In this document: positions 6,932 through 58,490 of the stretch, in pieces
How the letters are laid out: every line of letters starts with the position of its first letter
Position numbering within the stretch: position 1 is the stretch's first letter
From: an uncultured Gemmatimonadales bacterium
GTDB lineage: Bacteria; Gemmatimonadota; Gemmatimonadetes; Gemmatimonadales; GWC2-71-9
DNA length: 64,000 nucleotides
Direction: 5' to 3'
Assembly: GCA_963841505.1 (NCBI GenBank)
Contig: CAWJCZ010000001.1
Coordinates: forward strand, 149,834-213,833
The notes under the pieces: model-generated
Seen by the model: the letters and a program-made list of their open reading frames with translations, nothing else
Databases searched by the model: none
Told to the model about the DNA's origin: nothing
Position numbers and translations under genes: made by a program

Positions 6932-6962
6932 ACCCGGGCAAGGTGGCCGGCATCCCACTGTT

Positions 6963-10274: not shown

Positions 10275-11659
10275 TCACCGGCGGGGTGGATTTTCCCAGC
10301 GCTGGAGCATCCGGACCAGGGTTCGTCGGGAGATTCCGAGCACCCGCGCGGCGCGCTCACGGTTTCCTTCCGATTGACCCAGCACCGCGAGGACGTGCCG
10401 CTTCTCTACCTCGGCCAGGGACAGGGGCGCTGGCGTCAATGAGGTTGCCGGCATCGGCGGAGAGGGCAGGCCGCTACCGTCGTGGAGATCACGGGGCAGA
10501 TGTTCCGGGCCGATTACCCCCTGCGCGGCGAGCACGATCGCCCGCTCGAGCACATTCTGAAGCTCGCGGATATTGCCCGGCCAGGGGTATCTGAGCAGTC
10601 GGGCCTCCGCTTCGGGATCCAGCGCGACCGGATCCCGATGATGTCGCTGCGCCAGCTCGCCCAGCAGGTGATAGATCAGCAACGGAATGTCCTGTTGCCG
10701 TTCGCGCAGCGGCGGCAATGCAACCCGCACGACATCCAGACGGTACAGCAGATCCTCCCGGAACCGTCCCTGCTTGACCAGCGCTTCCAGCTCCTGGTGG
10801 GTCGCGGCGATGATCCGCACATCGACCCGCACCGCGGTATCTGATCCCACCGGGGTGATCTCCCGCTCCTGCAGGACCCGAAGGAGCCGGGTTTGCAGCG
10901 CGGGCGAAATGTCTCCGACCTCGTCGAGGAAGATCGTGCCCCGGTCGGCTTCCCGGAACAATCCGGTTCGGGTTCCCGAAGCCCCGGTAAACGCTCCCCG
11001 GATGTGCCCGAACAATTCGCTCTCGAGCACTCCTTCGGCGAGGGCCGAACAGTTCACCGCGACGAAGCGACTGGCGCTGCGGTCCGAATAGCCGTGGATA
11101 GCCCGGGCAATCAGCTCCTTTCCGGTGCGGTCTCTCCCGTGATCAGCACCGTGGCCTGGCTCTGGGACACGCGCCCCACCGTCTTCATCACTTCGATGAT
11201 TGCCGGACTGTGGCCAACGATGACCGGACTTCCCGGAGCGATGCGGCCGTCTGGGTCGCGGGGAACCACCGGCCGCGCCCGGCGCTCCAGCGCTTGTCCG
11301 ATTGCCTGACGGAGCGCGGCAAGGTCGTACGGCTTCGAGATGAAGTCGTACGCGCCAGCGCGAATCGCAGCGCCCGCGGCCACTGCGTCGCCGAACGCGG
11401 TGAGCACGAACACGAGGGCGTTGGGATCTCGCCGGCGGATCTCCCGCACCAGATCGAGCCCGCTCGCGCCGGGCATCCTGAGATCGGTGAGCACCGCATC
11501 GAATGGCCGTGATTCGGCGTCGATGGTCGTGAGGGCCGCATCAACCGAAAGCGCCCGGGCCACGACATACCCCTCGCGCTCGAGCACCTCGGCGAGCATG
11601 CGGCAGGCTTGCTCGTCGTCGTCCACCAGCAACAGATGCCCGCGGCGGTCCGACATCAT
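10275..11659 (-). CDS. sigma-54-dependent response regulator (NtrC/Fis family), 1-nt deletion inside Walker A
   Basis: Receiver domain LLLVDDDEQ...LTDLRMPG...ISKPYD. VLITGET then reads APERS* but one restored G gives GTGKELIARAIHGYSDRSASRFVAVNC. Also has GAFTGA, the ESELFGH context, and a C-terminal Fis HTH. Confidence 0.8.
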
Positions 11660-11678
11660 CCTCGTCCCATCGGCAGGG

Positions 11679-13060
11679 TCAGCGCCAGGTAGTCCCCCGA
11701 TGGCTCGGTTCCAGGACCAGGTCTCCCCCAAGGGTTGCGGGCGGCGGCTCACCCTGAGGCCAAGCCCGCTCCCGAGGGCACCTTTGATTCGCGAAGGGAT
11801 GGAACAGCTGCTCACGAATTTTCCTGCTGATCCCCGGTCCGGTATCAGACAGAGTCAGCCAGGCGAAGTTCCCATCGCTTCCAAGCCGGATCTGGAGTGC
11901 GCCCCCTGGGGCATGGCATCGAGGGCATTCTTCAACAGATTGAGCAGGATCTGCTCCAGCAGGTCCTCGTCGCCGAGCGCCCGCACGGTGTGATCGCTTC
12001 CATTCTCGATACTGGTCGAGACGCCGGCGGCGAGCGTGGAGGGGCTCGAGAAATTCCAGCATTCGAGTCGCGATGTGGCCGAGGTCGAGCAAGTCGCTCC
12101 GGGCACTGGGCCAGGATACCCTGGTCAGCCACGCCCGCACGATTCCGGCGACCCGCTCGACCTGTCCCAGCATCAGATCCACTCGATGGGCAGGACCGGC
12201 GGCGTCGAGCTCTTTCAGATCGTCCCGCAGCATCTGGAAGTGCCCGTTGATGGTGCTGAGCGGCGTACCGATCTCGTGCGCGAAGCTGCTGGAGGCCTCC
12301 TCGACCAGGGCCGCCCGCTCCAATCCGCGATTCGGTCCTGAGGGTCAGGAGTGCGGCGCGTGACTCGCCCTCCGTTCCCATCTGCGAGGGAAGCCCGCAA
12401 CTCGTTGTAGCCTCGGGCCAGGGTTCGGAACTCCTGGGGGCCCAGCTCGGGCGCAACCGGCCCGAGGCGCGCACCGCCCCGTGCTCCCGCCATAGCCTCT
12501 CCGAGAGCCGCGAGCGGAGCGCCGATCCACCGGCTGGTGAGCCACATGACACTCCCTGCCAGAATCAGAGCGGCCAGGCCGGCGAGCAGGTAGCTTCGCG
12601 TCCTCTCCTCGCTGGCCCACTCGTGCAGCCGGGAGGTCGAAAGACGGAGAGTCAGAAGCGCGTTCACCGTACCGATGCCGAGCGGCTGGGCGACATGCCA
12701 TGCGGGGTGTGGACCGGATTCCTGCCAGGCCATGGCCTGGTCCCGGACAATTGCCTGGCGGTCCTGGGAGGACAGGGCGCGCTGCTCGAGTGAATCGGTC
12801 GCCGCAACGAAACGGGCCTCGCCACCCCGATTCACCACGAAGAGTGCAGCCGCGGTGGACCGCAGGCGAAGACCGCTCCAATCTGCCAGGGCATCCTCCA
12901 AGCCTTCCCGAGTCCCGTCCGCGCGGCGAGATTCGTAGTCTCCCAGCACCGTGGCAATGCGAGGGCTTCCTGCCGGAGGTCTTCCATCCGGGATCGTTCG
13001 GAAAGGGCAAGCGAAGCTTCCGTGGCAACCAGCACCAGTCCGGCTGCGAGGCTCGCGCAT
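11679..13060 (-). pseudogene. sensor histidine kinase (TM-HAMP-HisKA-HATPase_c), at least 5 frame breaks
   Basis: The H-box SFAHEIGTPL, N-box LEQILLNLLKNALDAMPQG, G1 LSDTGPGI and G2 GSGLGL lie in three different frames (ORFs 12215..13060, 11679..12323, 11855..12106, and the N-terminus of 11111..11815). Confidence 0.7.
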
Positions 13061-13088
13061 GACTGAAAAGGCGAGGGAGGTTATTTCT

Positions 13089-13094
13089 ATTATA
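13089..13094 (-). promoter_or_regulatory. perfect TATAAT hexamer on the minus strand 29 nt upstream of the kinase ATG
   Basis: The plus strand reads ATTATA inside a local AT-rich patch (GGTTATTTCTATTATACGG) in otherwise ~70% GC DNA. No convincing -35 element. Confidence 0.25.
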
Positions 13095-13170
13095 CGGCGG
13101 CAACGGCATGCGGATTGCCCGCCGGCACCGAAACCTTCGCCACCACTCCAACCCTTTTGAGTGAATCTGA

Positions 13171-14139
13171 ATGAGCCGCGAGCTCCGGCTCGGCCTGCTC
13201 CTGGTCGGTGCGGGCCTGGTCACCCTGATGATCTGGAAAGTGGGGCCCGCGACCATCTGGAACGGGGTCAGCGGATCATGGTGGGTGGCCCTGGCCCTGA
13301 TCCCGCTCTGGGCGACCGTGTATCTCCTCAATTCGATCGCCTGGCGCCAGCTCACCTCCGCCGGCGGCGCACCGATTCCGCTGCTGCACGCCCTGCGCAT
13401 GACGGTCATCGCCTTCGCGGTGAACTACTCGACCCCGCTCCTGAGCTTTGGCGGCGAACCGCTCAAGGTGATGGCGGCCACCCCGGCTCTGGGGCGCCGC
13501 CGGGCGGTGGGATCTATCGTCGCTTTCCGGCTGCTGCACTCCCTGGTCCACGTCGTCTGGTGGCTGGTCGCCCTGATCCCCGCGGCGCTGCTGCTTCCCA
13601 ACAGCCTGCTCGCGGATTCGACGATCCTGGTGACCGGCGCCGTGATGGTCGGTCTGATCCTCTTTTTTCTTTCCCGCCACCGGGAGGGGATGGCGCTCCA
13701 GTTGCTCCATCTGCTGAAGCGGATCCCTCTGCTCAAGCGGCTGGCCACCCGGCTCGAGCCCCAGGCCGAAGCGCTCCATGAGATCGATCAGCACGTCACC
13801 GAGATCTACAAGCGGGCCCCGGGACGATTTTACGTTGCCTTCGCCGCGGAGTCGGTGGCCCGGCTGCTGTCGCTGGCCGAGTACTGGGTCATTCTCTACG
13901 GGTTAGGGCTGGGGATGAATCCCTGGCGGGCGCTTGTGGTGGCGAGCTTCGCGTCCCTGGTTGTGAACGCACTGATCTTCGTGCCCTTCGAGATCGGGAC
14001 CCGGGAGGGTGGCTCCTATCTCATCTTCCACCTGCTCGGCATCGACCCTGCGCTGGGACTCGCTGCGGCGCTGCTCACCCGGATCCGGGAGCTTACCTGG
14101 ATCGTGATCGGCTGGGCGATGGTCTGGACGGTGAAGTAG
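13171..14139 (+). CDS. lysylphosphatidylglycerol-synthase-TM-like (UPF0104 / flippase-like) membrane protein
   Basis: 322-aa polytopic ORF. The N-terminus LLLVGAGLVTLMIWKVGP...IPLWATVYLLNSIAWRQL is typical of the family. Confidence 0.55.
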   Translation: MSRELRLGLLLVGAGLVTLMIWKVGPATIWNGVSGSWWVALALIPLWATVYLLNSIAWRQLTSAGGAPIPLLHALRMTVIAFAVNYSTPLLSFGGEPLKVMAATPALGRRRAVGSIVAFRLLHSLVHVVWWLVALIPAALLLPNSLLADSTILVTGAVMVGLILFFLSRHREGMALQLLHLLKRIPLLKRLATRLEPQAEALHEIDQHVTEIYKRAPGRFYVAFAAESVARLLSLAEYWVILYGLGLGMNPWRALVVASFASLVVNALIFVPFEIGTREGGSYLIFHLLGIDPALGLAAALLTRIRELTWIVIGWAMVWTVK

Positions 14140-21301: not shown

Positions 21302-21334
21302 TATAGGCTGTCTGCGTTTACGGGATTGGAAACC

Positions 21335-21901
21335 ATGGGAATCATTGCGAGCGACATCCGCCGGGGCATGGCGATCATTTTCAACGGGGAGCCTTGCCGG
21401 GTCCTCGAGTTCCACCACCACACGCCGGGGAATCTCCGGGCCATGGTGCAGGCCAAGCTGCGTCGCCTCAAGACCGGGACCCAGATCGAGCACCGGTTCC
21501 GCTCGACCGATACCGTGGACGTGGCGGATCTGGAAACCCACGAGCTCGACTTCATGTACCGGGCCGGGACGACCTACCACTTCATGAACGCCGACAACTT
21601 CGACCAGCTCGAGATCGACGAGGAAACGCTGGGCGATGCCGCCAAGTGGATGGCCGAGGGCATGCGGATTCTGGCGGAGTGGTACGAAGGGCGACCCATC
21701 GGGATTCAGCTTCCGTCCGCCCTCACGCTCGAGGTGGCGGACACCACCCCGGTCATGAAGACCGCGACCAAGACCGCCTCCAGCAAGCCCGCCACCCTCA
21801 GCAATGGCGTCACCATCAACGTGCCTGAATTCATCCAGCCCGGCGAGCGGGTACGGGTGAATCCGACCACGGGCGAGTACATCGACCGCGCCAAGGAATA
21901 A
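21335..21901 (+). CDS. efp: translation elongation factor P
   Basis: Full-length similarity to EF-P (FNGEPCRVLEF...AKLRRLKTG...YHFMNADNFDQLEI...KPATLSNGVTINVPEFIQPGERVRVNPTTGEYIDRA). ATG 21335 is preferred to the track TTG at 21326. Confidence 0.9.
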   Translation: MGIIASDIRRGMAIIFNGEPCRVLEFHHHTPGNLRAMVQAKLRRLKTGTQIEHRFRSTDTVDVADLETHELDFMYRAGTTYHFMNADNFDQLEIDEETLGDAAKWMAEGMRILAEWYEGRPIGIQLPSALTLEVADTTPVMKTATKTASSKPATLSNGVTINVPEFIQPGERVRVNPTTGEYIDRAKE

Positions 21902-21970: not shown

Positions 21971-22201
21971 GTGGCATTGGACCGAATCTGGAGGAATGGC
22001 GAGGCTGCCCGCTATTTCCTTCCTGGAATTCCCCAACACGTCATCCAGCGCGGGAATAACCGCTCGGCCCTGTTCACCGCGTCGGATGACTACCGATTTT
22101 GCCGGTTTCTTCATGGAATTTCGGGCCTTCAAGCAAACTGCAGCTTCCGCTCTCTCTGGGTTCGGTCGCCCACTAAGATCGTCAACAGTAGACGCGAATG
22201 A
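21971..22201 (+). mobile_element. truncated REP-associated tyrosine transposase / IS200-like TnpA (COG1943) stub
   Basis: YFLPGIPQHVIQRGNNRSALFTASDDYRF matches the conserved N-terminus (PG.P.H.IQRGNNRQ..F..DEDY) of RAYT-type transposases. The catalytic remainder is missing. Confidence 0.5.
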
Positions 22202-22333
22202 GCGTGGGAACAGGGATGGAACCGATCAGCGCCTAGCTACTGCGAGTTTGGCCGACCGCCGATTGATCCTTCCCTGGTCCAGTTACCTCGACGACGCCCC
22301 CGGCCATCCGGATCGACTGGTCACGCGGCACGC

Positions 22334-22393
22334 TATAAGATGTTATAGTCGCGCGTCACGACTACAAGATGTTATAGTCCGACCTAACCCGCC
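22334..22393. repeat. REP-like element: 14-bp direct repeat AAGATGTTATAGTC (22337-22350, 22366-22379) flanking hairpin TAGTCG-cgcgtca-CGACTA, followed by CCTAACCCG
   Basis: Read directly from the sequence. The minus strand contains GTAG next to the palindrome, as in REP heads. It lies 130 nt downstream of the transposase stub. Confidence 0.55.
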
Positions 22394-22513
22394 TCAATAA
22401 TTGCTTGCGTACTAACCGGATTTTTTGTACCTTCGTGTGGAAGGCCTTGTCCGTTTGCTGCATACCGGTTTCCTGTGGGCGCACCTAACGCCGCAGCAGA
22501 GGGAGGAGAGCGA

Positions 22514-23860
22514 ATGTCTCTCTTCAGACGATCCAAGCCGGCATTGGGCCATCTGTTCATAATTGCCGTGGTGGCCGCCTGTACTGAAAGCACTATCGGC
22601 CCACGTAGGCTTCCATTTACTACTCTTCCACTATTCTCGGTCCATTCCATCTCTGATGACCAATGGCCATTTTCTCTCAGTCCTTCAAACAGCAATGACA
22701 CTGTTGGCCCCTACACCATCACCACTCTACCCCGGTGGACTCTCCTAGAGCTGATCGTGTCCGGATCTGAGGAGGCTACGTACGAGTATGGGCCTCATAT
22801 CGGGGAGGCGACTGGGTTCACTTAGGGACCAGGTGGTGAGCCAACTCTCAGCGGTTGTTCTGGAGCGAATATCGCCATCACCTTCACCACAGGAGGTGGC
22901 TACACGTGGTGTGGGAACGACACAACGTCCAGTGTCGTCTCAATCGCCAAGGGGACGGGGGTAGTCTTTTGGAATCCGGGGCCTGGGGACGTACACATAC
23001 CCGAGTGCGGTCGCCCTCCATATAGTCCGTGTTACTCGATAAGCGGGACTTTCGATGTAACTGTTAAGAAACCTGCCACAACGCTTTCTTTAACTCCGGA
23101 TGCAATCTCGACCACGGCCGGAGCAGAACTAACCTGGTATCTCACCCTGACACCCTACAGCTACCACGGAGTAGCATTTCCGTTTCAGATCCAGGATTAC
23201 TGGAAGTACTACGCTGACTCTGGAGGAACGTATTCTGTTTGCCTTTTCTACGACAGTTGTTCCTATTCTCCAACGAAGACTGGAACGATCAAGGTCCCTG
23301 TGTTTGTCCAGGGAGACAGCGTCATGATGTTTGGCAAAGTCTACGTGTTCCCATGCCTGATTGGAGACTCCTTGCTTGACGACCCGATCATCCGACAGGG
23401 CCTTCGTGATGCATGGGCTGGCTCCAACCCTGATGGGAATGCCAATGACCGTACTGAGAGATACGGTGGCAAGGCTTGCACGAACGGAGTGTGTTCTCCA
23501 GTGTTGGGACCTATCGGGGCCAACGACAACGCTTGCAGGAATTTCCCGAGCGATCCGTCTGGAAGTTGGACAGTCACCTGGCATACCCACCCGTTCATGC
23601 CAGGTGATACCCTAGACCCACTACCATCGGATTCTACGAAGTGCGCTTGGCCAAGGGACACGAATGGGAATCCTTTTCAACCGCCGAGTCCCCGTAAGTC
23701 AGCTCCAAGGCCCTCACGTGAAGATCGGGTGACCAATTCCTGGCTTCCAAGAATCGTGATAGACAAGCAGAACGTCTACTTCTTACCCGCCAATGATACC
23801 CTTACGGTCAAGACCTTCGACAGGAACACTTGCGACCCGCTTGCCGGTGCTATCTATTAA
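22514..23860 (+). CDS. lipoprotein with Cys-rich middle region and tentative JAB/MPN-like C-terminal motif, interrupted by one in-frame TAG (22823-22825)
   Basis: GGAGG plus ATG 22514. Lipobox IIAVVAAC. Frame 2 is open from 22514 to 23860 except for the TAG (hand-translated). The C-terminus has ERYGG...WHTHP...PSREDRV. Track ORFs 22475..22825 and 23300..23860 are in the same frame. Confidence 0.55.
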
Positions 23861-23900
23861 ATGCGATGGTGGGAGGGTCATCCCAGCCTTGGAGTTCAAG

Positions 23901-24302
23901 ATGCGATACTCGACACTTCTAGTATTCGTCGTACTCAGTGGGGTTTCGACAGCTGCTCGTAGTCAGTCGAGTTGCTTGAACGACGGTGGAGTGGGCCTCC
24001 AACTCATTGCACTCAAGCAGATGGTTGCCTCCAATGATTCACTAACATTGGCCAAGCTGTCGATCATTAAAGTTGACAGCTCACAGGTTGTGGCGGTATC
24101 GACCGACTCGGTCTGCTCGCCTGCTGTCTCGTCCTTCCGCTCCAAACTCGGACTCTCAACTAGTCCGACAACAGCCTATGTATTCCAGGTCGGAGCCAGT
24201 CGTTTGGTAGTGCTGCATCCCTCCATCGGATCGGGCGAGTTTCGAACCCACGTTGTAATGCGAGCATCGGATTACGTGGTTCTTGACGTCTTTGAAGGCT
24301 AG
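23901..24302 (+). CDS. small secreted hypothetical protein
   Basis: ATG 23901. Signal peptide MRYSTLLVFVVLSGVSTAARSQ. 133 aa, low GC, no recognisable family. Confidence 0.5.
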   Translation: MRYSTLLVFVVLSGVSTAARSQSSCLNDGGVGLQLIALKQMVASNDSLTLAKLSIIKVDSSQVVAVSTDSVCSPAVSSFRSKLGLSTSPTTAYVFQVGASRLVVLHPSIGSGEFRTHVVMRASDYVVLDVFEG

Positions 24303-24329
24303 CACTTGCAGTGGGCCGAGGACCCCATT

Positions 24330-25448
24330 TCAGACCCGCAGTACGAGACCCCGTCGCTCCATAACCCGCAGTATCCCGTACCACAGCGCCACAAACCCGA
24401 TCGCATAACCGAGCGAGGCGACTCGTGGCGGCAGCCACGACGCGAATGCGGCGTGGTAGATCCCCTGTTGCAGCGACGTCGTGCCGTCGGCCGAGGGCAG
24501 CCGGATCATGCCGAGGACCCGGGCCATCGCCCCGGAGCCAATGAACGCGGTGAGCGGGTTGAGCCCATAGGTCACCAGCGGCGCGGCCCAGCGATTCTTT
24601 CCCTTGACGTCCATGATCCAGGAAATCACCCCGAGGATTACTGCGGCCATCCCGGCGGTGAAGACCACGTAGGAGCTGGTCCACAGGTTCTTGTTGATGG
24701 GGAGGGCCCAGTTCCATACCAGGCCCGCCATCATTCCAATCGCTCCGGCCGAAAACAGGCCGTTCAGCCGTTCGGCCAGCGGAAGGGGCCGGGTCAGCCA
24801 GCGCCCGGTGAGGAGACCGAGGAGACAGGTGCCAATCGCCGGCAGGGTCGAGAGGAGACCTTCGGGGTCCCAGGTCCGGGATTCCTTCCAGAGGTGGGTG
24901 CCGAAGATGCTACGGTCGATCCAGGCCGACAGGGTCTCGCCCGGAACATCGATCGTGGGATGGACAACCCCGGGCGGCGCAATGAGGGTCTGAAGGCCCC
25001 AGTAGCCGAACAGGAGCACGACGACGATCAGGGTGATCCGACGCCAGGAGCTGCCCCGGGCCAGGAATGCGGTGGCCAGATAACACAGGCCGATCCGCTG
25101 GAGCACGCCGGGGAAGCGAACTTCGGTGATTCGGGTCAGGGGAAACCACGGGAAGGACTGAAGCATCAAACCAAGGAAGATGATGAGCAGTCCACGCTTC
25201 AGAATCCGGAGCCGGACCGAGGCAGGTGCAATTCCCCTCCGCTCGGCACTCTCCAGCGAGAGGTGGCTGGTGATGCCCACGATGAATACAAAGAACGGGA
25301 AGATGAGATCGGTCGGGGTCCAGCCGTGCCAGGGTGCGTGCTCGAGCGGCGGGAAGATCGCGCTCCAGGTCCCGGGATTGTTGACCAGCAGCATCCCCGC
25401 GATAGTCAGGCCGCGGAATGCGTCCAGGGCGGCGAGGCGCTCCCGCAT
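24330..25448 (-). CDS. acyltransferase, heparan-alpha-glucosaminide N-acetyltransferase-like (DUF1624/DUF5009)
   Basis: GGAGGA plus ATG 25448. RLAALDAFRGLTIAGMLLVNNPG...PLEHAPWHGWTPTDLIFPFFVFIVG is the family signature. The track ORF extends spuriously to 26159. Confidence 0.75.
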   Translation of the reverse strand: MRERLAALDAFRGLTIAGMLLVNNPGTWSAIFPPLEHAPWHGWTPTDLIFPFFVFIVGITSHLSLESAERRGIAPASVRLRILKRGLLIIFLGLMLQSFPWFPLTRITEVRFPGVLQRIGLCYLATAFLARGSSWRRITLIVVVLLFGYWGLQTLIAPPGVVHPTIDVPGETLSAWIDRSIFGTHLWKESRTWDPEGLLSTLPAIGTCLLGLLTGRWLTRPLPLAERLNGLFSAGAIGMMAGLVWNWALPINKNLWTSSYVVFTAGMAAVILGVISWIMDVKGKNRWAAPLVTYGLNPLTAFIGSGAMARVLGMIRLPSADGTTSLQQGIYHAAFASWLPPRVASLGYAIGFVALWYGILRVMERRGLVLRV

Positions 25449-34008: not shown

Positions 34009-36050
34009 TGGGTCTCGGATTCCTGGTTCCGCTCTTTCTGGCTGGGCTCGCCGCGCTCGCGATCCCGGTGTTCATCCACCTCCGTCATCGGGAATGGGAG
34101 AAGCCGCACCGGTTCCCCTCGCTCATGTTCCTCCGCCGCATTCCGATTCGCACCGCCCGGCGGCGACGGATCACCGACTGGCTGCTCCTGCTGCTTCGCG
34201 CCGCGGCGGTCGCACTGCTGGTGCTCGCCTTCTCGCGGCCGTTCTTCCATAAGGATGCCGCCGCGGTCGCCGCGGGCCGTTCGCGTGCGGTGGTCGTGCT
34301 GCTGGATCGGTCGCTCAGCATGGGACATCGCGAGGTGTGGCCTGCCGCGCTCGATTCCGCTGCCGGAGTGGTGCGCTCCCTGGGAGCGAACGACCGGGTC
34401 GCGGTGGTCCGCTTCGACGAGCAGACCGAGCTGGCCCAGGCGCTCACCACCGATCACGGGGCCGCGCTCGCCGCGATTTCCTCGACCGCACCCACGACGC
34501 GTGGCACCCGCTACGCGGCCGGCCTCCGGGCCGCCCGCCAGGCGCTGGTGGGCGCGGGCGAGGCGGGAGAGATCGTGGTGATTACTGATCTCCAACGGAG
34601 CGGTCTGGCCGGACTTGCCGGGGTGGAGCTTCCCTCCGGCACCCTGGTGCGCACGGCGAGTGTCGCGGCGCATGACCGGAGCAACCTCTCGGTTCTGAGC
34701 GCCGAGGTGCAGCGGGTGCCGTCGGGCGATCGCACCGAGCTCCTGGTCACCGTCCGGATCCGGGCCCAGGACCTGCCGGCTCCCAGGAAAGCGCGGGTTA
34801 TGCTGAGCGTGGACGGCCGCGCCGCCGGCAGCAAGGATGCCCCGGTCTCCACCGACGGCGTGGTGACCGTGTCCTTCGACCCGGTGCCCCTGGCGGCGGG
34901 GCGGGCCCGCGCGGTGGTGGCGCTGGAGCCCGATGCGCTTCCGGCGGACGACACGTTGCGCATGGTAGTGCCCGCCGAAGCCGGTCTCCGGGTGCTGATG
35001 ATCGGGTCCCGGGGCACCGGGGGAGACGACCTCCTGTTCACCGAGCGCGCGTTAGGGATCGGGCGGGATCCCCGCTTTACCGTCGAGCGGCGCCAGGTAC
35101 TCGACGCTTCCGCGCTCCGGGGCGCCAGCGTGGTGCTCTGGCTCGAGGGCAGCGTCCCGGACCAGGTGCTGACGCCTTGGGTTCGCGAGGGGGGCGGGCT
35201 CATCGTCGGAGCGGGGGCGCGCCTGGCGGGTGAGAATGCCCTGCTTCCGGGAACCAGCAACGGGATGATCGAGCGGCTCGGCGATGGTGGCGGCGCTTTC
35301 GGCGAAGTGTCGGTGGATCACCCGATCTTTTCCCCCTTCAAGGAAGGGGGCACCGCGGTGCTCGGCGCAGCGCGGTTCCTCCGCTATCCGCGGATTGCCG
35401 CCTCGGAGGGAACCCAGGTGCTGGCGCGATTCGATGACGGCTCCCCGCTGCTGCTCGAACGGAAAGTTGGCGATGGGCGGGTGCTGCTGGTGGCCGCGCC
35501 GCTGGACAACCTCACCGGAGATTTCCCGCTTCAGCCGGGGTTTCTTCCTTTCGTCCGCCGCCTCGCGATCTACGCGGCGGGCCACCAGGTGGCGCCCCTC
35601 TGGCGCACCACCGGTGAAACCGGCATCGTTCCTGGGGGAGTGCGCGAGCCGGTCATCGCAACCCCTCGGGGCGAGCTGGTTCGTCCCGCATCGGATTCGG
35701 CGCCGTGCACCGTGGTGCTCGAGGATGCGGGCTTCTATCAGACCTATGCGAATCGCGCAGCGGGGGAGCCGATCGATGTGGTCGCGGTCAATCCACCCAA
35801 CGCGGAATCGGATCTCACCCCGGCCGACCCGCGCGAGCTCCTGATCGGGGTCCGTCAGAGCGATTCGGCGAACGCCGCGCCTCGGGAGCGACTGGCCGCG
35901 GCGGAGCAGGAATCGCAGCAGGGTGTCTGGCGCCTCCTGATCGCCGCGGTTCTGGTGCTGGTGGTGCTCGAAGCGTTCGTCGCCAATCGTGGCTGGAGAG
36001 GCACCGCAGCATCGGTGCTGCCGGCCCCGCCGGAAAGGAAGTCTCCATGA
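34005..36050 (+). CDS. BatA-type N-terminal double-TM domain + vWA-like protein
   Basis: FLVPLFLAGLAALAIPVFIHLRHR...FPSLMFLRRIP is the aerotolerance BatA_N signature. Also contains LLDRSLSM. Confidence 0.75.
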   Translation: MMGLGFLVPLFLAGLAALAIPVFIHLRHREWEKPHRFPSLMFLRRIPIRTARRRRITDWLLLLLRAAAVALLVLAFSRPFFHKDAAAVAAGRSRAVVVLLDRSLSMGHREVWPAALDSAAGVVRSLGANDRVAVVRFDEQTELAQALTTDHGAALAAISSTAPTTRGTRYAAGLRAARQALVGAGEAGEIVVITDLQRSGLAGLAGVELPSGTLVRTASVAAHDRSNLSVLSAEVQRVPSGDRTELLVTVRIRAQDLPAPRKARVMLSVDGRAAGSKDAPVSTDGVVTVSFDPVPLAAGRARAVVALEPDALPADDTLRMVVPAEAGLRVLMIGSRGTGGDDLLFTERALGIGRDPRFTVERRQVLDASALRGASVVLWLEGSVPDQVLTPWVREGGGLIVGAGARLAGENALLPGTSNGMIERLGDGGGAFGEVSVDHPIFSPFKEGGTAVLGAARFLRYPRIAASEGTQVLARFDDGSPLLLERKVGDGRVLLVAAPLDNLTGDFPLQPGFLPFVRRLAIYAAGHQVAPLWRTTGETGIVPGGVREPVIATPRGELVRPASDSAPCTVVLEDAGFYQTYANRAAGEPIDVVAVNPPNAESDLTPADPRELLIGVRQSDSANAAPRERLAAAEQESQQGVWRLLIAAVLVLVVLEAFVANRGWRGTAASVLPAPPERKSP

Positions 36051-39000
36051 GTGGAATCGATCTGGCCCTTCGCCAGGCAGTCGAGCGACTGCGGCGCCGG
36101 CGCCTGAACCGGGTGTTGCTGGAGGGCGCGGTGAAGGTGGTGGCCGCGGTGTTCCTCGCAGTGCTCGCGGCCATGGTGGTGAGCGCGCTGCTCGGGTCCG
36201 GCTCGAACTCCCTGATCGTCGCGCGGGTTATCGGATACCTGCTGATTGCGGCTGCGCTGGTGCGCTACCTGGTGGTTCCTCTGCTTCGGCGTCCTGATGA
36301 TCGCGTCCTGGCCCTCTATATCGAGGAGCGGGAGCCCGATCTCAAGCAGGCCCTCCTCAGCGCGGTGCACGAGCTGAACATTCCGGAAGAGGAGCGGGCA
36401 TCTTCGGGCCTCAGCGCCCTGGTGGTGGAGCGAGCACTGGCGGAAGTCCGGAAGCTCGAAACTGGGCCGGGCCTCGAGCGCACCCAGGTGCAGCGAGCGG
36501 CCGGGATGCTGGCGGCCGGCGTGGCGATCGGCGCGATTCTCGTGTTGGCGGGTCCCCGCGTGGTGCGCGATGCGGCCAAGGTGCTGTTCGTACCGTGGAG
36601 CGAAGCCGAAGCCGAGCCGGTGCTCGCGATCTCGGTGATCCCGGGAAATGCCGCGGTGCCTCGGGGTGGTGCGGTCCAGGTCGAAGCTTCCCTCCGGGGC
36701 TTTCAGTCCGACGGCGCCGAGCTGGTGATGCGGGCGGACACGGCGAGCGAGTGGATCCGGGTGCCGATGCAGCGCGATTCGGCGGCGGGAACCTTTTCCG
36801 CGCGGGTCTTCGATCTGGTCCGGCCCACCGAATACTTCGTCGAGTCGGAGGGGGTCAAGTCTCCCGCCTACCGACTGGGCGTCACCGATCTCCCCGCGAT
36901 TCAGCGTCTCGCGCTCACCCTGCGCTATCCGGCGTACACGAGGCTCGCGCCCGAAACCATGGATCCGGGCGGCGACGTCGCCGCGCTCACCGGAACCACG
37001 GTGACAGTCCGGAGCACGTTAACCCGCGCTGCCAAATCCGCTTCGCTCCGGCTCGATGACGGCACGGTGATTCCATTCACCGCCGACTCCGCGGGGCGTT
37101 GGAGCGGCAGCTTCCGGATCGCGAAGGACGGTTTCTACCGGGTGGACCTGGTGGCCCCCGATGGGACCCCGGTCCCCGGTTCGGTGCAGTATGTGATCGA
37201 AGCGCTGGAGGATCACAAGCCCGCGGTGCGGATCGAACAGCCGGGTCGGGACACCAAGGTGACCTCGGTGGAAGAGGTCACCATCGCCCTGGCGGCGTCG
37301 GACGACTACGGCGTGACCGGCCTCGAGCTGCTCTATTCGGTCAACGGCGGCCCGGAGCAGCGGGTCATCGTTTCCGACTCCGGAAAATCATCGGAAGACC
37401 TTCGCGCGGCCCACACACTCTTTCTCGAGGAGATGCAGCTCAAGGCCGGCGATCTGATCTCCTACCACGCCACGGCGAAAGACGGGGCGGGGAACACCGG
37501 CTCGAGCGACATCTATTTCCTGGAAGTGCGCCCCTTCGGACGGGACTACCGCCAGGCCGAATCCGGCGGCGGAGGTGGTGGCGGGGGCGGTGAATCTCCC
37601 GAAGGCCTCTCGGCGCGGCAGCGCGACGTGATCGCAGGCACGTTCAACTGGTTGCGTGACAGCGCCGCCACCGTGGCCAAGCAGCGCACCGAAGATGTGA
37701 CGACGCTGGCGATCAGCCAGGGCCGGCTCAAACAGGACGTCCAGGGAATGGTGCGCCGCCTGGTAGAGCGGAATGTGGCTTCGCGCGACACCAATTTCGC
37801 CAAGATCAAGGATGAGCTCGATGCCGCCGGCAAGGAGATGGAAACGGCGGAGCAGCAGCTCGGCACCGGGAAGGCCCGTGACGCGCTCACGCCGGAACAG
37901 CGGGCGCTTCAGCATGTTCAGCGAGCCGAAGCGGTGTACCGCGAGGTCCAGATTCAGCTTGGTGGCGGGGGAGGAGGCGGAGGGGGCGGAGCCCAGCAAT
38001 CCCGGGCCGAGGATCTTGCCGACCTCTTCGAGTTGGAGAATGACAAGCTCAAGAATCAGTACGAGCAGGTTCAGCGGGAGCAGTCCCAGGCCGCGCAGCA
38101 GGAAGTGGACGAAATCGCGGAGCGCCTGCGTCAGCTTGCCGCGAGGCAACAGCAGGAGAATGAGCGGATGCAGCGCGCGGCCGATGCCATGCGCGACCGG
38201 GTCGGGCAGCAGGGCGGTGGCGGCGGTGGTGGCGGAGGCGGAGCCCAGCGCGATCTGGCCCGGCCAGGCCGAAGAAGAAGCGCGCCGGCTGGAACGGCTG
38301 GCCCGGGAGCAGAACCAGCCTCAACTCAATGAGACCGCGCGTCAGCTCCGGGAGGCCGCCGACGCGATGCGGCGAGCCGGGAGCGACGCGGCGGGCTCCG
38401 CCGCGCAGGGCGGGAATGCGCTGGACCGGCTGCGGCGCGCGACCAAGGATCTGGAAGAATTCCCGGAGCACCGGCCTGGCGGATCAGGTCCGCGACCTCG
38501 AGCGCCGGGCCCGGCAGCTTGCGGAGCGGCAGCAGGATATCGCGGACCAGGTCCGCGGGTTAGGCTCGGCGTCTCCGGCCGAGCGGAACGAGCGGCTCCA
38601 GCGGCTCGATGAACGAAAGGACGGATTGGCTGCCGAAGTTGACCGGCTCCAGTCTGACGCCGAGCGCGCGGCGCGGGAAGGGCGCCGGGAACAACCCGGG
38701 GCCGCGGGCCGGGCGGGACAGGCCGCGGAACAGCTTCAGAGCGGGCAGGATCCGCGATCGCATCGTCTATTCCAAGGGAGTGATGCGAGGGAATTCCCCC
38801 GATTACGCCAACCAGTTCGAGGGACAGATCACCCAGGGGCTCAAGGACGCCGCGGACCGACTCCGGGATGCGGCCGGTGCGCTGGGTGAATCAACGGACG
38901 ATAAGCGCGACCGCGCGCTCGAGCAGGCCAGGAACCTGGTGCGAGGGCCTCGAGTCGACGAAGGAGAGGAGCCAGAGTGGTCAGGCCGCCGGACAGGCGG

Positions 39001-39605
39001 ACAGGCGGACAGGCGGCCAGGAGAGTGATCAGCAGGGGCAGGCCCAGGGGGGCCAGCCGGGAGCACAGCCCGGGCAAAGCCAGGGCGGAAGTCAAGGAGG
39101 TCAGCCGGGACAGGCTCAGGGCCGGCAGCAGGGAGGTCAACCCGGCGGTCAGCCGGGCCAGAACCAGGGCGGGTTAGGGCCGAATCCGATGGGCGGCGCC
39201 GGCAATCCATCGGGCGGGGCGGGCCCGATCACCGGGGAACAGGCTCGGCAGCTGAGCCGGGAGTACCGGCTGCGGCGGGAAGCCGCCGAGAGCCTGCGCC
39301 GCGAGGTGGGCAGGCAGGAGGGGGTCGAGCTGGGCGAGCTGGATCGTGCGATTCGCGGTTTGCGTCAGCTCGAGAGCGGGGAGCCGTTTCGGGATCCCCA
39401 GCGGATGGAGGATCTCCAGCGCTCCATCATCGAGGGACTCAAAACCTGGGAATTCCGGCTGTGGCGCGCGCTGACTCAGAACGGCGACAAGGGACCGGCG
39501 GTGGGGTCGCCGTCGCAGGCCCCGGCCGAGTACCGTGCGCTGGTGGAAGAATATTATCGGTCGCTGGCGCGGGAGAAGAAGCCGAACTCGAACCCGAGGC
39601 CCTAA
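36047..39605 (+). pseudogene. large DUF4175-like membrane/coiled-coil protein with three poly-Gly tracts, 4 frame breaks in the last third
   Basis: ATGA overlap start with N-terminal TM segments. Intact to about 38260, then continues through ORFs 37773..38612, 38329..38889, 38609..39028 and 38868..39605. The C-terminus AEYRALVEEYYRSLA is typical of the family. Confidence 0.6.
38991..39016 (+). repeat. tandem octamer array GGACAGGC x3
   Basis: Read directly from the sequence. It lies inside the low-complexity tail of the DUF4175-like gene. Confidence 0.75.
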
Positions 39606-55091: not shown

Positions 55092-56201
55092 ATGAGCGCC
55101 GGCCCCCCTGACCTGGCTTCCGAACCCCCGGCCTCCCGGCTCCGTCCCAGCCCGCTCGCTATTCTGGCTTTTCTCGCGGTGGCCTATACCCTGTATTTCG
55201 CCCGGGCCTTTCTGCTCCCGGTCACCTTCGCGGTCCTCCTGAATTTCGTGCTGGGGCCGGTGGTGCGGGTGCTGGGTCGGTTGCGGATCCCCACCGGCGT
55301 CGGGTCGGCCCTGGTGGTGCTGGGGCTGGTGGGGACCGTCGGGTTCGGGGTGTACAAGCTCGCCGGCCCGGTCCAGGCCTGGGGAGAAAAGGCCCCCCAG
55401 GCGATCGCGGGAGCCGAGCGCGAGCTGCGCAAACTGTTTCGTCCCTTCGAGCGGGTGAGCCAGACCGCCAAGCAGGTGGAGAGCGCCGCCGGTCAGGTCG
55501 GAGGCGTCGAGCCGACCAAGGCCCAGGAGGTCGTGGTCCGGGGGCCGACCCTCCTGTCCCGGCTGTTCGGCTCGAGCTCCCGGGCGGTGGCGGCGCTCCT
55601 GGAGATCGCGATCCTGCTGTATTTCCTGCTCGCGGCGGGCGACCTGTTTCTCCGGAAGCTCATCAAGCTGCTTCCCAATCTCACCGACAAGCTGACCGCG
55701 GTCCGGATTGCCCGGCAGACCCAGGCCTCGATCTCGACCTACCTGGGCACCGCGGCGCTGATCAACCTGATCGAAGGGCTGGTGGTGGCGGCGGCGATGC
55801 AGCTGATCGGCATGCCTAACCCGCTGCTCTGGGGCGCGGCGGCGTTTCTCCTCGAATTCGTTCCCTATCTCGGCGCGGCCCTCCTGACCGTGGTTCTCTT
55901 CGTGGCCGGCCTCTCCACTTTCCACCAGCTGGGACCCGCCCTGCTGCCCCCCGGCGCCCTGATCCTGATCAACCTGCTCCAGGCCAACCTGCTCTACCCG
56001 GTGCTCCAGGGGCGCCGGCTCGCGCTCAACCCGGTGGCGGTGTTCATCGGGATCGCATTCTGGTACTGGATCTGGGGCGTGGCGGGCGCGTTCGTGGCGG
56101 TGCCGATCCTCGCGACCCTCAAGATCTGCGGGGATCACATCGAAGGACTCTCGCCGTTGGGCGAGTTTCTCGGCGCCCGGGACGAAACCCCGCTGCCATG
56201 A
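55092..56201 (+). CDS. AI-2E (PerM/UPF0118) family transporter
   Basis: Polytopic. Contains ...AAFLLEFVPYLGAALLTVVLFVAG... and ...NPVAVFIGIAFWYWIWGVAGAFVAVP..., typical of AI-2E. Confidence 0.75.
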   Translation: MSAGPPDLASEPPASRLRPSPLAILAFLAVAYTLYFARAFLLPVTFAVLLNFVLGPVVRVLGRLRIPTGVGSALVVLGLVGTVGFGVYKLAGPVQAWGEKAPQAIAGAERELRKLFRPFERVSQTAKQVESAAGQVGGVEPTKAQEVVVRGPTLLSRLFGSSSRAVAALLEIAILLYFLLAAGDLFLRKLIKLLPNLTDKLTAVRIARQTQASISTYLGTAALINLIEGLVVAAAMQLIGMPNPLLWGAAAFLLEFVPYLGAALLTVVLFVAGLSTFHQLGPALLPPGALILINLLQANLLYPVLQGRRLALNPVAVFIGIAFWYWIWGVAGAFVAVPILATLKICGDHIEGLSPLGEFLGARDETPLP

Positions 56202-58003
56202 GCAGTGGGGGATCCGCGCTCAACGTCAGTCTGCTGTCGCGGCCCCGCCGCGTGCTCATCGTGGGATGGTTTCTCGGAACGTTGGTGCTGGGCACCCGGG
56301 GCTATCTGGAGTATGCCCAAGCGATCGGGGCCGACCGATCGATCGGAACCGCGCTCTATCACTGCGCCCAGCTCTTCCTCCTCCACGCGCCCCACTTCGA
56401 ACACCCGGTCCCGGTCGCCCTCGAGATTGCCCGCTGGTCGGCGGCGATCTTCCTGGCCGGGACGGTGCTCCAGATCGGTCGCCAGCTCTTTCCCAACGAG
56501 TTTGCCGCCCTGCGATTTCGCCGTTTCTCGAACCACGTGGTCATCGGGGGACTGGGACGGCGCGCGGTGCAGTGCGTGCGCCATGAGCGGGACCATGCCG
56601 GCCGCCGGCGACAGGTGGTGGTGATCGACCGGCAGCCACCCGAGGAGCAGACCCGGGAATGCCTCGCGCTCGGGGCCCACGTGATTACCGGGAACGTGGC
56701 CGATCCCGCGGTGCTCCGGTCCGCCGGGCTGCATCGCGCCGCCGAGCTCTGGGCGCTGTGCCCCGACGATAGCGTGAACTGCGAAACCGCGGTGCAGGCA
56801 GAGGCGGTGCTCGATGCGGCCGCGCGTTACCGGCGCAAACGGGGCCCCCTGCTCTGCAACGTGCACCTCTCCGATGTCGATCTTCGGGTCGAGCTCCAGC
56901 GGCTGGCCCAGCGGACTGTCGAGGGATCGCCGGCGGCGATTCAGTTCTTCGACCTCTACGACCGGGAGGCCCGCCGGGTCCTCCTCTCCGAGCTGCCGAT
57001 CGACCACGGCGGGATCGGCTCCGGGGAAGCCCGCAGACCCCACCTCGTGATTTTCGGGTTCGGCCGGATGGGCCGGTCGGTGGCGCTTCGAGCCGCCAAG
57101 CTGGGGCACTTCGCCAACGGCATCGAGGTTCCGGAACGCAGGCTCCGTATTTCGGTGATCGATCGGCAAGGCACTGCCGGGGAGGATGCCTTTCTGTTTC
57201 GCTATCCCCGGTTCCGTGAGGTCTGCCGGCTGGACGTTCATCAGCTCGACCTTGAATCCGCCAGAGCCCGGGAGCTGATCGAGGAATGGTCGGGCGATCC
57301 GGGAGCCCTCACCAGCCTGGTGGTGTGCTTCGACGACCAGTCCCGGGCGGTCGAAGTCGCCCTTCGGCTTCTCCCGGCGCTTCAGGCCGACGCGGTGCGG
57401 GTCGCGGTGCGGGTGGCCCACCGGGAAGGCCTCGGCGCCATGGTGGACCGGCTGTGGAGCCGGCCCGAGCCGGGAGCGCGGGTTAGGGTCAGGACCTTCG
57501 GGCGCCTCGACGAGGGATGCTGTTCGGCGGCACTCCAGGATACCCGGGAGGAAAAGCTCGCCCGCGCCATCCACGCCGATTTCGTGACCCGGCGACTCGC
57601 CGAAGGAGAGCGGAGTCCGGCCGACCGGAGCGTGGTCCCATGGTCCCTGCTGGAAGAGGACCTCCGCGAATCCAATCGCCAGCAGGCCGACCACGTCGCC
57701 ATCAAGCTCCGCTCGATCGGAGCGGACCTCCATCCTGGCTCGGCAAGCTCCGATGCTCGATTCCGTTTTTCCGGGGGAGAAATCGAGATGCTGGCCCGGA
57801 TGGAGCATCACCGATGGAATGCCGAGCGTCTGCTGGCCGGATGGACCCGGGGGCCCAAGAGCGTCGAGCGGCGAACCAGTCCGTATCTCTGTGACTGGTC
57901 GGAGCTTCCCGAGGAGATCCGGGACTACGACCGCGCCGCGGTACATACCATCCCTGCACTGCTCGACGAGATCGGCCTGCACGGGGAACGTCGCACCCGG
58001 TGA
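56198..58003 (+). CDS. 2-TM, degenerate-pore, double Rossmann (TrkA-N/RCK-like) protein with C-terminal RyR domain
   Basis: ATGA overlap with the AI-2E gene. TM1, then TALYHCAQLFLL (no TVGYG filter), then TM2. HVVIGGLGRRA and HLVIFGFGRMGRS glycine loops. C-terminus EHHRWNAERLLAGWTRGP...SPYLCDWSELPEEIRDYDRAAVHTIPALLDEIGL (RyR). Confidence 0.7.
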   Translation: MSSGGSALNVSLLSRPRRVLIVGWFLGTLVLGTRGYLEYAQAIGADRSIGTALYHCAQLFLLHAPHFEHPVPVALEIARWSAAIFLAGTVLQIGRQLFPNEFAALRFRRFSNHVVIGGLGRRAVQCVRHERDHAGRRRQVVVIDRQPPEEQTRECLALGAHVITGNVADPAVLRSAGLHRAAELWALCPDDSVNCETAVQAEAVLDAAARYRRKRGPLLCNVHLSDVDLRVELQRLAQRTVEGSPAAIQFFDLYDREARRVLLSELPIDHGGIGSGEARRPHLVIFGFGRMGRSVALRAAKLGHFANGIEVPERRLRISVIDRQGTAGEDAFLFRYPRFREVCRLDVHQLDLESARARELIEEWSGDPGALTSLVVCFDDQSRAVEVALRLLPALQADAVRVAVRVAHREGLGAMVDRLWSRPEPGARVRVRTFGRLDEGCCSAALQDTREEKLARAIHADFVTRRLAEGERSPADRSVVPWSLLEEDLRESNRQQADHVAIKLRSIGADLHPGSASSDARFRFSGGEIEMLARMEHHRWNAERLLAGWTRGPKSVERRTSPYLCDWSELPEEIRDYDRAAVHTIPALLDEIGLHGERRTR

Positions 58004-58019
58004 TCCGCTCGCTCTTTCC

Positions 58020-58490
58020 ATGATGCAGCCGGTCGCGCTCCCTCCCGGCGTGGTCGAGCAGCTTGCCCGGGCCATACACGCGCGATATCTCCAGAACCAG
58101 AAGGACCGAAAGGCACCCGATGATCCGGCCATGCAGCCGTGGGACAAGCTTCCCGCGGCGCTCCGGGAATCGAACCATGTGCAGGCCGCCGCGATCCCGC
58201 GGACGGTGGCGCGCATGGGCTACCACATTGGTCCGTTGAACCGCGATGCGCATCGGGTATTCCTCGATGAGGAGCTCGAGCTCCTCGCCGAGGGAGAACA
58301 TGACCGGTGGGTGGCCGAACGGAGAAACGCCGGGTGGAGCGCAGGGCCGGCCCGCGATGCCGAACGGAAACAGACGCCTTACCTGGTGAGCTGGACCGAG
58401 CTGGACGAGGAAATCCGCGAGTACGACCGGGATGCGATTCGCGCGATTCCGGAGGTACTCGCCGAGGTCGGGCTCGGCCTCTTTCGCTAG
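58020..58490 (+). CDS. stand-alone RyR-domain protein (copy of the upstream protein's C-terminal module)
   Basis: LARAIHARY...W..LPAALRESNHVQAAAI, then EHDRWVAERRNAGWSAGP...TPYLVSWTELDEEIREYDRDAIRAIPEVLAEVGL. Confidence 0.7.
   Translation: MMQPVALPPGVVEQLARAIHARYLQNQKDRKAPDDPAMQPWDKLPAALRESNHVQAAAIPRTVARMGYHIGPLNRDAHRVFLDEELELLAEGEHDRWVAERRNAGWSAGPARDAERKQTPYLVSWTELDEEIREYDRDAIRAIPEVLAEVGLGLFR

Follow-up and report, generated by a model that had tools for sequence, protein, structure and literature searches.

GsuK, a multi-ligand- and RCK-gated potassium channel of Geobacter sulfurreducens that is also regulated by NAD+, carries a pore domain of two transmembrane helices (2TM) and two tandem RCK domains within one chain. 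In the animal ryanodine receptors, Repeat12 is a peripheral regulatory part of a Ca2+ release channel of 5000 amino acids (aa). Outside animals, RyR domains have long been puzzling, and the first function reported for them, in 2026, concerns phage proteins only: mycobacteriophage RyDEP, a RyR-domain glycosidase, opens 2'- and 3'-cyclic ADP-ribose (2'cADPR and 3'cADPR) to ADP-ribose (ADPR), and other phage RyR homologues are nanomolar-affinity sponges for these same Thoeris signals (PMC13232231, a preprint of May 2026, confined to viral proteins and silent on cellular RyR proteins). Here we describe cellular RyR proteins encoded in a 64,000-nucleotide stretch of DNA from an uncultured Gemmatimonadales bacterium (GCA_963841505.1, contig CAWJCZ010000001.1, positions 149,834 to 213,833), referred to as a whole as the window. 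They are a 2TM/double-Rossmann/RyR protein of 601 aa (MID, the middle one of three genes; 56198..58003) and a free RyR protein of 156 aa (58020..58490), preceded by a gene for an AI-2E family transporter of 369 aa (55092..56201), all on the plus strand, as are the features of MID given below. The MID family places a RyDEP-type pocket on the host side, fused to a channel-derived protein and repeatedly located beside TIR/DUF4062-STAND genes.

The domain calls made for MID in the initial annotation of this DNA, together with the tandem arrangement of its Rossmann domains, are borne out by Pfam search, profile alignment and confident models. Pfam assigned TrkA_N to residues 114-205 (E = 1.2e-12; 48.7 bits against a cut-off of 23.8) and RyR to residues 529-589 (E = 4.8e-10; 40.0 bits against 27.4), and the AlphaFold2 model (pLDDT 91.2, pTM 0.87) comprises helices at residues 15-43, 49-59 and 73-97, Rossmann folds from residues 113 and 280, and a C-terminal module of four helices and two strands. 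The motifs quoted in that annotation are all present, namely TALYHCAQLFLL at residues 51-62, HVVIGGLGRRA at 113-123, HLVIFGFGRMGRS at 282-294 and the two-part C-terminal module.

A membrane part of potassium-channel-like topology with no selectivity filter, as had been proposed from the letters, is also what the alignments and the model helices indicate. The family profile (83 members) aligned with MthK in hhalign with a probability of 96.5, colinearly through the first transmembrane helix (TM1), the pore helix, TM2 and RCK, with a 5-residue gap placed precisely opposite TVGYG. TM1 (residues 15-43; 56240..56326) is defined by the model helix, the MthK alignment and invariant columns, and contains the invariant G32 and G35 in an LGTxGY motif common to MthK (YGTAGF). 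The pore-helix equivalent (residues 49-59, ALYHCAQLF, with a nearly invariant Y54) and a 13-residue loop (residues 60-72, LLHAPHFEHPVPV) occupy 56342..56413; this loop, which stands in the place of TVGYG, is glycine-free and variable in sequence across the family. TM2 (residues 73-97; 56414..56488), also a helix in the model, opens with a conserved LExARW motif in which R79 is invariant. MID is therefore a channel-derived protein that has the topology of a K+ channel and lacks the T-V-G-Y/F-G filter, and because this filter is missing it cannot be a K+-selective channel. Some homologues are labelled 'voltage-gated potassium channel Kch' by JGI, and both the topology and the RCK domains fit MthK and GsuK, so that MID could be taken for an ordinary Kch/MthK-type K+ channel with the free RyR gene as an unrelated neighbour; we regard this as extremely improbable, since a gap and an unconserved loop replace TVGYG or any glycine-containing filter, Pfam Ion_trans_2 was not detected in MID, and free RyR and other RyR proteins recur beside the family.

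Foldseek searches with the MID model returned GsuK first (4gx1/4gx0, E = 9e-9, solved with ADP), followed by the TrkA ring with ATP-gamma-S, MthK and Slo1, and they also matched RyR3 Repeat12 with ATP, ADP or dantrolene. Full-length chains of GsuK (PDB 4GX0, 4GX1, 4GX5) align with MID over 535-618 columns, with the same succession of a 2TM domain and two tandem RCK domains; MID differs from them in the absence of TVGYG, in RCK units without C-lobes, in the additional RyR Repeat12-type domain and in an identity of only about 15%. The first Rossmann/RCK domain (56525..56992), called by Pfam as TrkA_N, has a GxGxxA loop with invariant G118 and G120 and a VVVID strand, and a profile search of the PDB matched it to TrkA, GsuK, TM1088A and KefC. 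The second, RCK-like domain (57035..57535) has a GxGxxG loop and an ISVID strand, with G287, G292 and D322 invariant; it received no Pfam call and is defined by the beta-alpha-beta pattern that starts at residue 280 in the model and by Foldseek alignments to tandem-RCK TrkA/GsuK over 420-450 columns. With MthK, TrkA and other KTN/RCK proteins MID shares the colinear TM1-RCK alignment (MthK), the TrkA_N domain and the nucleotide loops; it is distinguished from them by the deleted filter, a second Rossmann domain outside the Pfam call, and no evidence of Ca2+ sites. Judged by these comparisons, MID derives from GsuK/MthK-type 2TM potassium channels with RCK gating; it retains their membrane topology, the pore helix and a cytoplasmic tandem-Rossmann module such as forms gating rings, it has lost the filter and gained a complete Repeat12-type domain, and it would thus illustrate the fate of a K+ channel scaffold once its filter is gone and its gating machinery is retained.

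The C-terminal module of MID (57545..57991) is identified by Pfam RyR, Foldseek, conserved columns and a PDB profile search that matched Repeat12 of RyR1, RyR2 and RyR3 with E = 1e-21 to 1e-23. It consists of two repeats, at residues 450-513 (H459, W482, ESNRQQA) and 526-598 (E536, H537, R539, W540, D578). The free RyR protein scored 65.9 bits with Pfam RyR against the cut-off of 27.4 (E = 3.9e-18), and phmmer against the PDB matched it to RyR1/2/3 at E = 1e-18 and to a 139-aa 'RyR domain-containing protein', 35tm. Its AlphaFold2 model (pLDDT 95.9) superposes on the whole of RyR3 Repeat12 (with ADP or AMP-PCP; Foldseek TMq 0.70-0.74), and according to this model it is a complete two-repeat Repeat12-type domain in one chain. 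Sequence matches of the bacterial proteins to the animal domain thus span E = 1e-18 to 1e-23, and the animal domain takes ATP, ADP and dantrolene in the same cleft; in contrast with the bacterial module, which is about 50 residues shorter, it belongs to a channel with an unrelated pore.

BLASTP aligned the free RyR protein with the C-terminus of MID at 44% identity over 144 aa (E = 3e-36), and repeat 1 also matched repeat 2 significantly out of register, so that two internal repeats make up each module; the bipartite module recognized at the outset is therefore a pair of tandem RyR repeats. In a tree of 99 RyR modules the grouping followed architecture and not locus, and the free RyR proteins of the window and of the related loci L001, L003, L004 and L005 (L numbers designate genome loci throughout) formed one clade, which excluded the MID modules encoded at these loci. 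Their separate clade marks the free RyR proteins as an old independent lineage. The initial annotation had called the free protein a stand-alone copy of exactly the MID module; the domain type is indeed the same, and a recent duplication of the MID C-terminus is ruled out by the tree. Stand-alone RyR proteins of about 160 aa number at least 48, in a census with a RyR-module profile which, because of its word prefilter, returned almost only free RyR proteins.

The published structure of RyDEP makes it possible to consider what these modules may bind. In its pocket, H75 and D117 serve catalysis, W78 stacks on adenine and H100 contacts the phosphates, with the product ADPR in place, and the pocket residues are conserved across PF02026, the animal Repeat12 domains included (PMC13232231). 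With the register of the 35tm alignment and the residue numbers given in PMC13232231, the equivalents of H75, W78 and D117 are H537, W540 and D578 in MID and H94, W97 and D136 in the free RyR protein, at the same spacing. The E-H-x-R-W ... D pattern is invariant or nearly so in MID, in free RyR proteins and in two kinds of proteins encoded beside MID in other genomes, AAA ATPases and RelA/SpoT homologues (RSH) with a RyR domain (AAA-RyR and RSH-RyR), and the distance from H to D is 41-42 residues in all. Repeat 1 of the free RyR protein contributes H20, W41 and S51-N52 as further candidate ligand residues, and the phosphate-contacting H100 is not kept in the window proteins, which have Gln/Thr or Thr/Ser instead. 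The likeness to RyDEP and the sponges is therefore one of PF02026 fold and of His, Trp and Asp at the ADPR/cADPR contacts; RyDEP, in contrast, is viral, anti-defence, of a single repeat and homodimeric, whereas the window proteins are cellular and chromosomal, with two repeats per chain and one of them fused to a membrane protein. The earlier remark that no function is established for bacterial RyR domains is, in consequence, outdated for phage members of the family (PMC13232231) and still holds for cellular proteins like these.

These conserved positions also bear on a different explanation, in which RyR is a homotypic adaptor of the effector-associated or Death-like kind that joins MID, AAA-RyR, RSH-SLOG-RyR and the free RyR protein, the last being a competitive inhibitor or a bridge. 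Proteins of several different kinds whose genes lie next to one another end in a RyR domain, a pattern typical of adaptor domains, and RyDEP crystallized as a homodimer (PMC13232231). The tandem repeats are, however, predicted at very high model confidence (pLDDT 95.9, TMq 0.7 to RyR3 Repeat12) to close intramolecularly, leaving no unpaired repeat, the strongest conservation falls on the ligand-contacting H, W and D and not on a surface patch, and the clustering of the modules by architecture gives no sign of co-evolving cognate pairs. We therefore consider an adaptor role rather unlikely.

A phosphatase is among the genes found next to free RyR genes. An atypical Cys-phosphatase gene (Pfam Y_phosphatase3, PF13350) adjoins the free RyR gene in L083 (7543-8486), L005 (7379-8659) and L004 (4921-6062), with an overlap of 4 nucleotides (nt) between the two genes in L083, and the census revealed fusions of a protein tyrosine phosphatase (PTP) with RyR, of about 307 aa, among metagenomic proteins (P0149, P0151, P0174). 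This adjacency and fusion suggest the removal of a phosphate from the ligand or from its product.

Among 5.8 billion proteins searched, 91 were full-length homologues of MID, of about 600 aa and with the same TrkA_N and RyR annotation; at source they are called no more than 'NAD-binding protein', 'RyR domain-containing protein' or, in error, 'Kch'. The closest relatives are from uncultured Gemmatimonadales; the family extends to other Gemmatimonadota, Verrucomicrobiota, Planctomycetota, Acidobacteriota, Bacteroidales, Chloroflexota, several archaeal metagenome-assembled genomes and isolates of Myxococcota (Archangium, Vitiosangium). G118/G120, G287/G292, D322 and R79 are invariant throughout. 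One Verrucomicrobiaceae locus (L020) contains two MID paralogues, at 5905-7731 and 11609-13393 and 3.9 kb apart, as well as an AAA-RyR gene. A mobile-element or phage-derived origin was dropped from consideration: plasmids gave one weak match, to a RyR-only protein, and tblastn with the free RyR protein gave none in phage genomes.

The genomic surroundings of the family were compared at 80 loci with MID homologues from about ten phyla and archaea, by scoring six-frame open reading frames (ORFs) with the window proteins and with queries derived from neighbours, representatives of which were identified with Pfam. A conflict-type neighbour (a DUF4062/TIR-STAND NTPase, an AAA-RyR, RelA/SpoT-type or free RyR protein) was present in 45 of these loci, and in 26 of the 42 whose flanks both reach 3 kb or more. 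DUF4062 or TIR_2 domains were found at 18 loci, usually at the N-terminus of neighbouring STAND proteins, and STAND NTPases (NACHT, nSTAND1 or NB-ARC with TPR or WD40) at 16, mostly on the same strand as MID and at intergenic distances as low as -81 to +119 nt; in L065, the end of a TIR-NB-ARC-TPR gene is 1 nt ahead of MID. DUF4062 is a TIR-like NADase that produces ADPR in Avs-type and other anti-phage systems, as described in three 2026 preprints, none of which mentions RyR or TrkA partners, and the glutamate of its CLxEI motif is kept in most of the DUF4062 domains that adjoin MID. Free RyR proteins are encoded at 12 of the 80 loci, AAA-RyR proteins of 850-1030 aa at 14, and RelA/SpoT-type proteins at 12, five of the latter being (NUDIX)-RelA_SpoT-TPR-SLOG(LSDAT)-RyR proteins and four ORFs of about 310 aa directly upstream of MID. 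From these operon-like neighbours in other genomes, the MID family probably belongs to a nucleotide-centred network of the conflict or immune type. We found no earlier description of RyR together with NADase/STAND, SLOG or DUF4062 conflict systems in the literature searched, and the papers examined on RyDEP, DUF4062 and STAND conflict systems do not mention a RyR-NADase-STAND association.

Several of these neighbours deserve a record of their own. AAA-RyR genes occur, for example, in L004 (7746-10832, minus strand), L070 (7792-10425) and L081 (2406-5051), besides 11 other loci; their N-terminal domain of about 400 aa (VAGDVxxDW...GGAxLLA...VLDDAGNGFR) had no Pfam or PADLOC match and is a candidate for the part that provides the complete RyR cluster with its enzymatic or sensing function. 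RelA/SpoT-like ORFs of about 310-375 aa lie directly upstream of MID in L016 (1353-2294), L017 (1987-2922), L018 (5002-5925) and L022 (2785-3909), with DUF4062-STAND genes following, a three-gene arrangement that hints at an alarmone-type second signal. In L085 (6795-13288), two RyR genes (261 aa and 154 aa) stand beside TIR_2-WD40 and HSP70-TIR_2 genes in the absence of MID and close to a transposase fragment and a terminase-like gene, and the region looks like a defence island.

The initial annotation had suggested a ligand-gated regulatory module. With the RyR and TrkA_N calls and the filterless channel topology upheld, this remains the most reasonable reading of what would be the function of these genes, and we give about an even chance to a more specific form of it, in which an NAD-derived or adenine nucleotide gates MID as a membrane effector or sensor and is also the ligand of the free RyR protein. 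From the domain identities, homology, conservation and gene neighbourhoods described above we infer an oligomeric state, a ligand, a pore activity and a role for the free RyR protein along the following lines. MID would assemble as a tetramer, as its channel relatives do, and its Rossmann sites and RyR pocket would bind adenine nucleotides, the likely ligands being NAD+ or an NAD-derived product such as ADPR or a cyclic ADPR isomer. Binding would alter the membrane domain, most plausibly by opening a non-selective leak that collapses the membrane potential, and the free RyR protein would bind the same ligand in the cytosol as a threshold setter or signal terminator, acting either as a buffer or as a RyDEP-like glycosidase. 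Suited to comparison are the signal-gated membrane effectors of bacterial immunity, namely the Thoeris ThsA variants with transmembrane domains, the transmembrane effectors of CBASS and CARF-TM Cam1, and also the ADPR-gated TRPM2. MID would resemble them in the fusion of a nucleotide sensor to a membrane-perturbing domain and, in other genomes, in the position of its gene beside one for a signal-producing or NAD-cleaving enzyme; it differs in that its sensor is RyR plus RCK and its membrane part derives from a K+ channel, and in matching no PADLOC model.

A number of observations weigh against a nucleotide-gated effector. The variable sequence of the loop that replaces the filter, together with the invariant R79 at the outer mouth, leaves room for a membrane part that is a mere anchor. 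Binder and enzyme are undecidable from the H/W/D sequence, since the sponge-type homologues of RyDEP keep these residues too. Near-absence from plasmids and the lack of a phage match are unlike typical mobile defence cargo, conflict-type neighbours are missing from 35 of the 80 loci, and no PADLOC model matched any of the three window proteins; for ten neighbour proteins of related loci the matches were confined to PDC-S33, for the RelA/SpoT part, and to generic ones of TPR or WD40/TIR-like kind. The whole 64-kb window contains no homologue of NADase, STAND, DUF4062, TIR, AAA-RyR or RelA/SpoT genes, so that the source of a signal would have to be elsewhere in the genome, and the flanking genes (MsrA, DCC-type, DinB, an NHL protein, an Ior-type oxidoreductase, an aminotransferase) are housekeeping genes syntenic with L001.

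If the effector reading is true, MID and its partners would form a new sensor-effector pair in nucleotide-based immunity, would offer a reason why phages carry RyR-domain decoys, and would provide a simple bacterial model for the coupling of nucleotide binding to a channel by Repeat12. A bolder version, which we hold to be possible and clearly the less probable of the two, makes RyR/Repeat12 the host-side receptor for ADPR/cADPR signals made by TIR/DUF4062 proteins, MID an unrecognized effector class in which a filterless K+-channel scaffold is gated jointly by RCK and RyR, and the soluble RyR protein the cell's own buffer or terminator; this would give a prokaryotic origin to the control of channels by adenine nucleotides or cADPR through Repeat12, as in animal ryanodine receptors. 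The lead offered by the family as a whole is stronger than anything particular to the reduced locus of the window.

The first of the three genes stands apart from this argument. AI-2E_transport (PF01594) was assigned to residues 23-346 of its product (E = 4.6e-42; 144.8 bits against a cut-off of 34.3; profile positions 3-322 of 327), so that the likeness to AI-2E/UPF0118 transporters (TqsA/YdgG, the UPF0118 Na+(Li+)/H+ antiporter) covers nearly the full protein; NCBIfam gave only AI-2E, YtvI and CxpE matches, all far below their equivalog cut-offs. The initial annotation had proposed to test for a co-conserved triad of AI-2E, RCK-RyR and RyR genes; such a triad is not supported by the neighbourhood comparison, where AI-2E stood beside a MID homologue in two of the 80 loci (L001 and L003), a count unchanged at E <= 1 with a dedicated hidden Markov model. 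The membrane protein and the free RyR protein, on the other hand, occur together in all Gemmatimonadales relatives whose flanking sequence is long enough (L001, L003, L004, L005, L081, L083), a pairing conserved within this order only; elsewhere MID has other RyR partners. The upstream backbone DCC-DinB-AI-2E of the window is common to L001 and L003, and this longer synteny means that the adjacency of AI-2E and MID can be inherited gene order.

An ion-homeostasis module would nevertheless give the transporter a part: AI-2E would be a working transporter, MID its membrane-bound RCK regulator sensing NAD(H)/ATP, and the free RyR protein an accessory. The ATGA overlap of the first two genes and the 16-nt spacer before the third imply a single transcript, AI-2E lies upstream of MID in L001, L003 and L081 at MID identities of about 59-81%, RCK/KTN proteins commonly regulate separate transporters (structures of TrkH-TrkA and KefC are among the matches), and the AI-2E family includes Na+(Li+)/H+ antiporters (PMC7221264). 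Against these points, AI-2E is absent from 78 of the 80 loci, those that have it share the DCC-DinB-AI-2E backbone with the window, a phosphatase gene on the opposite strand separates AI-2E from MID in L081, the Gemmatimonadales relatives L004, L005 and L083 have no AI-2E next to MID, and the channel-derived membrane domain of MID itself makes a separate transporter needless. This leaves the module a low probability; a conserved partnership of AI-2E with the RyR genes is not supported, and its placement here is probably a matter of lineage-specific synteny.

The proposed overlap and abutment of the three genes agree with their ORFs. The stop codon TGA of the AI-2E gene (56199-56201) shares bases with the start codon ATG of MID (56198-56200), forming an ATGA at 56198..56201 that reads ccATGAgc (...CCATGAGC...), and the free RyR gene opens with ATGATG at 58020, after the 16-nt spacer (58004..58019), in which sequence inspection and a promoter/terminator scan revealed no recognizable Shine-Dalgarno, no promoter-like site and no terminator. 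Judged by overlap and position, AI-2E, MID and the free RyR gene are co-transcribed here, which is no proof of a functional triad. The GC content of the window is about 67%, at which long chance ORFs are common; the ratios of nonsynonymous to synonymous substitution (dN/dS) against the syntenic relative L001 were 0.11 for AI-2E, 0.13 for MID and 0.26 for the free RyR gene, with dS of 0.6-1.0, and such low values indicate that the three genes are real and under purifying selection rather than chance products of a high-GC sequence.

The fuller clusters of the Gemmatimonadales relatives show what the window may have lost. They contain MID, AAA-RyR, an outer-membrane-protein-like (OMP-like) protein of about 230 aa, often a Y_phosphatase3-type phosphatase, and then free RyR. 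Loci reached from free RyR homologues (L081, L083 and L085) agreed with those reached from MID in their conflict-type neighbours. The order in L081 is AI-2E, phosphatase (minus strand), MID, AAA-RyR, WD40 (minus), TIR_2 (minus), OMP-like and free RyR; in L083, MID and AAA-RyR precede the OMP-like, phosphatase and free RyR genes, and a DUF4062-NACHT-WD40 gene lies in the vicinity. In the window and in L001, MID is followed directly by free RyR with nothing between them, no PTP or OMP-like homologue was found in the whole 64 kb of the window, and the gene order of L001 matches that of the window from a Ser/Thr kinase through the aminotransferase. By its gene content the window's version is a reduced, two-gene cluster that is kept under selection.

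The OMP-like protein, which is conserved, is encoded a short way ahead of the free RyR gene in the Gemmatimonadales clusters (L081 7282-7980, L083 6866-7546, L002 4475-5266, L003 10149-10883, L005 6900-7688). It has no Pfam match on record; its signal peptide and its C-terminal GLGMQF or GLGMRL make it look like an outer-membrane beta-barrel.

Elsewhere in the window, in which no tRNA gene and no Rfam family at the gathering threshold were found, the GC content falls to 0.54 at 22000-24400, as against about 0.67 in the remainder. This region, which may be a foreign insertion, includes two ORFs for small, apparently secreted proteins (23300-23860 and 23793-24302) beside the gene for EF-P (21326-21901). 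At 35705-39605, two ORFs with long poly-Gly and Gly/Gln-rich runs coincide with a spike in GC- and AT-skew at 38-40 kb.

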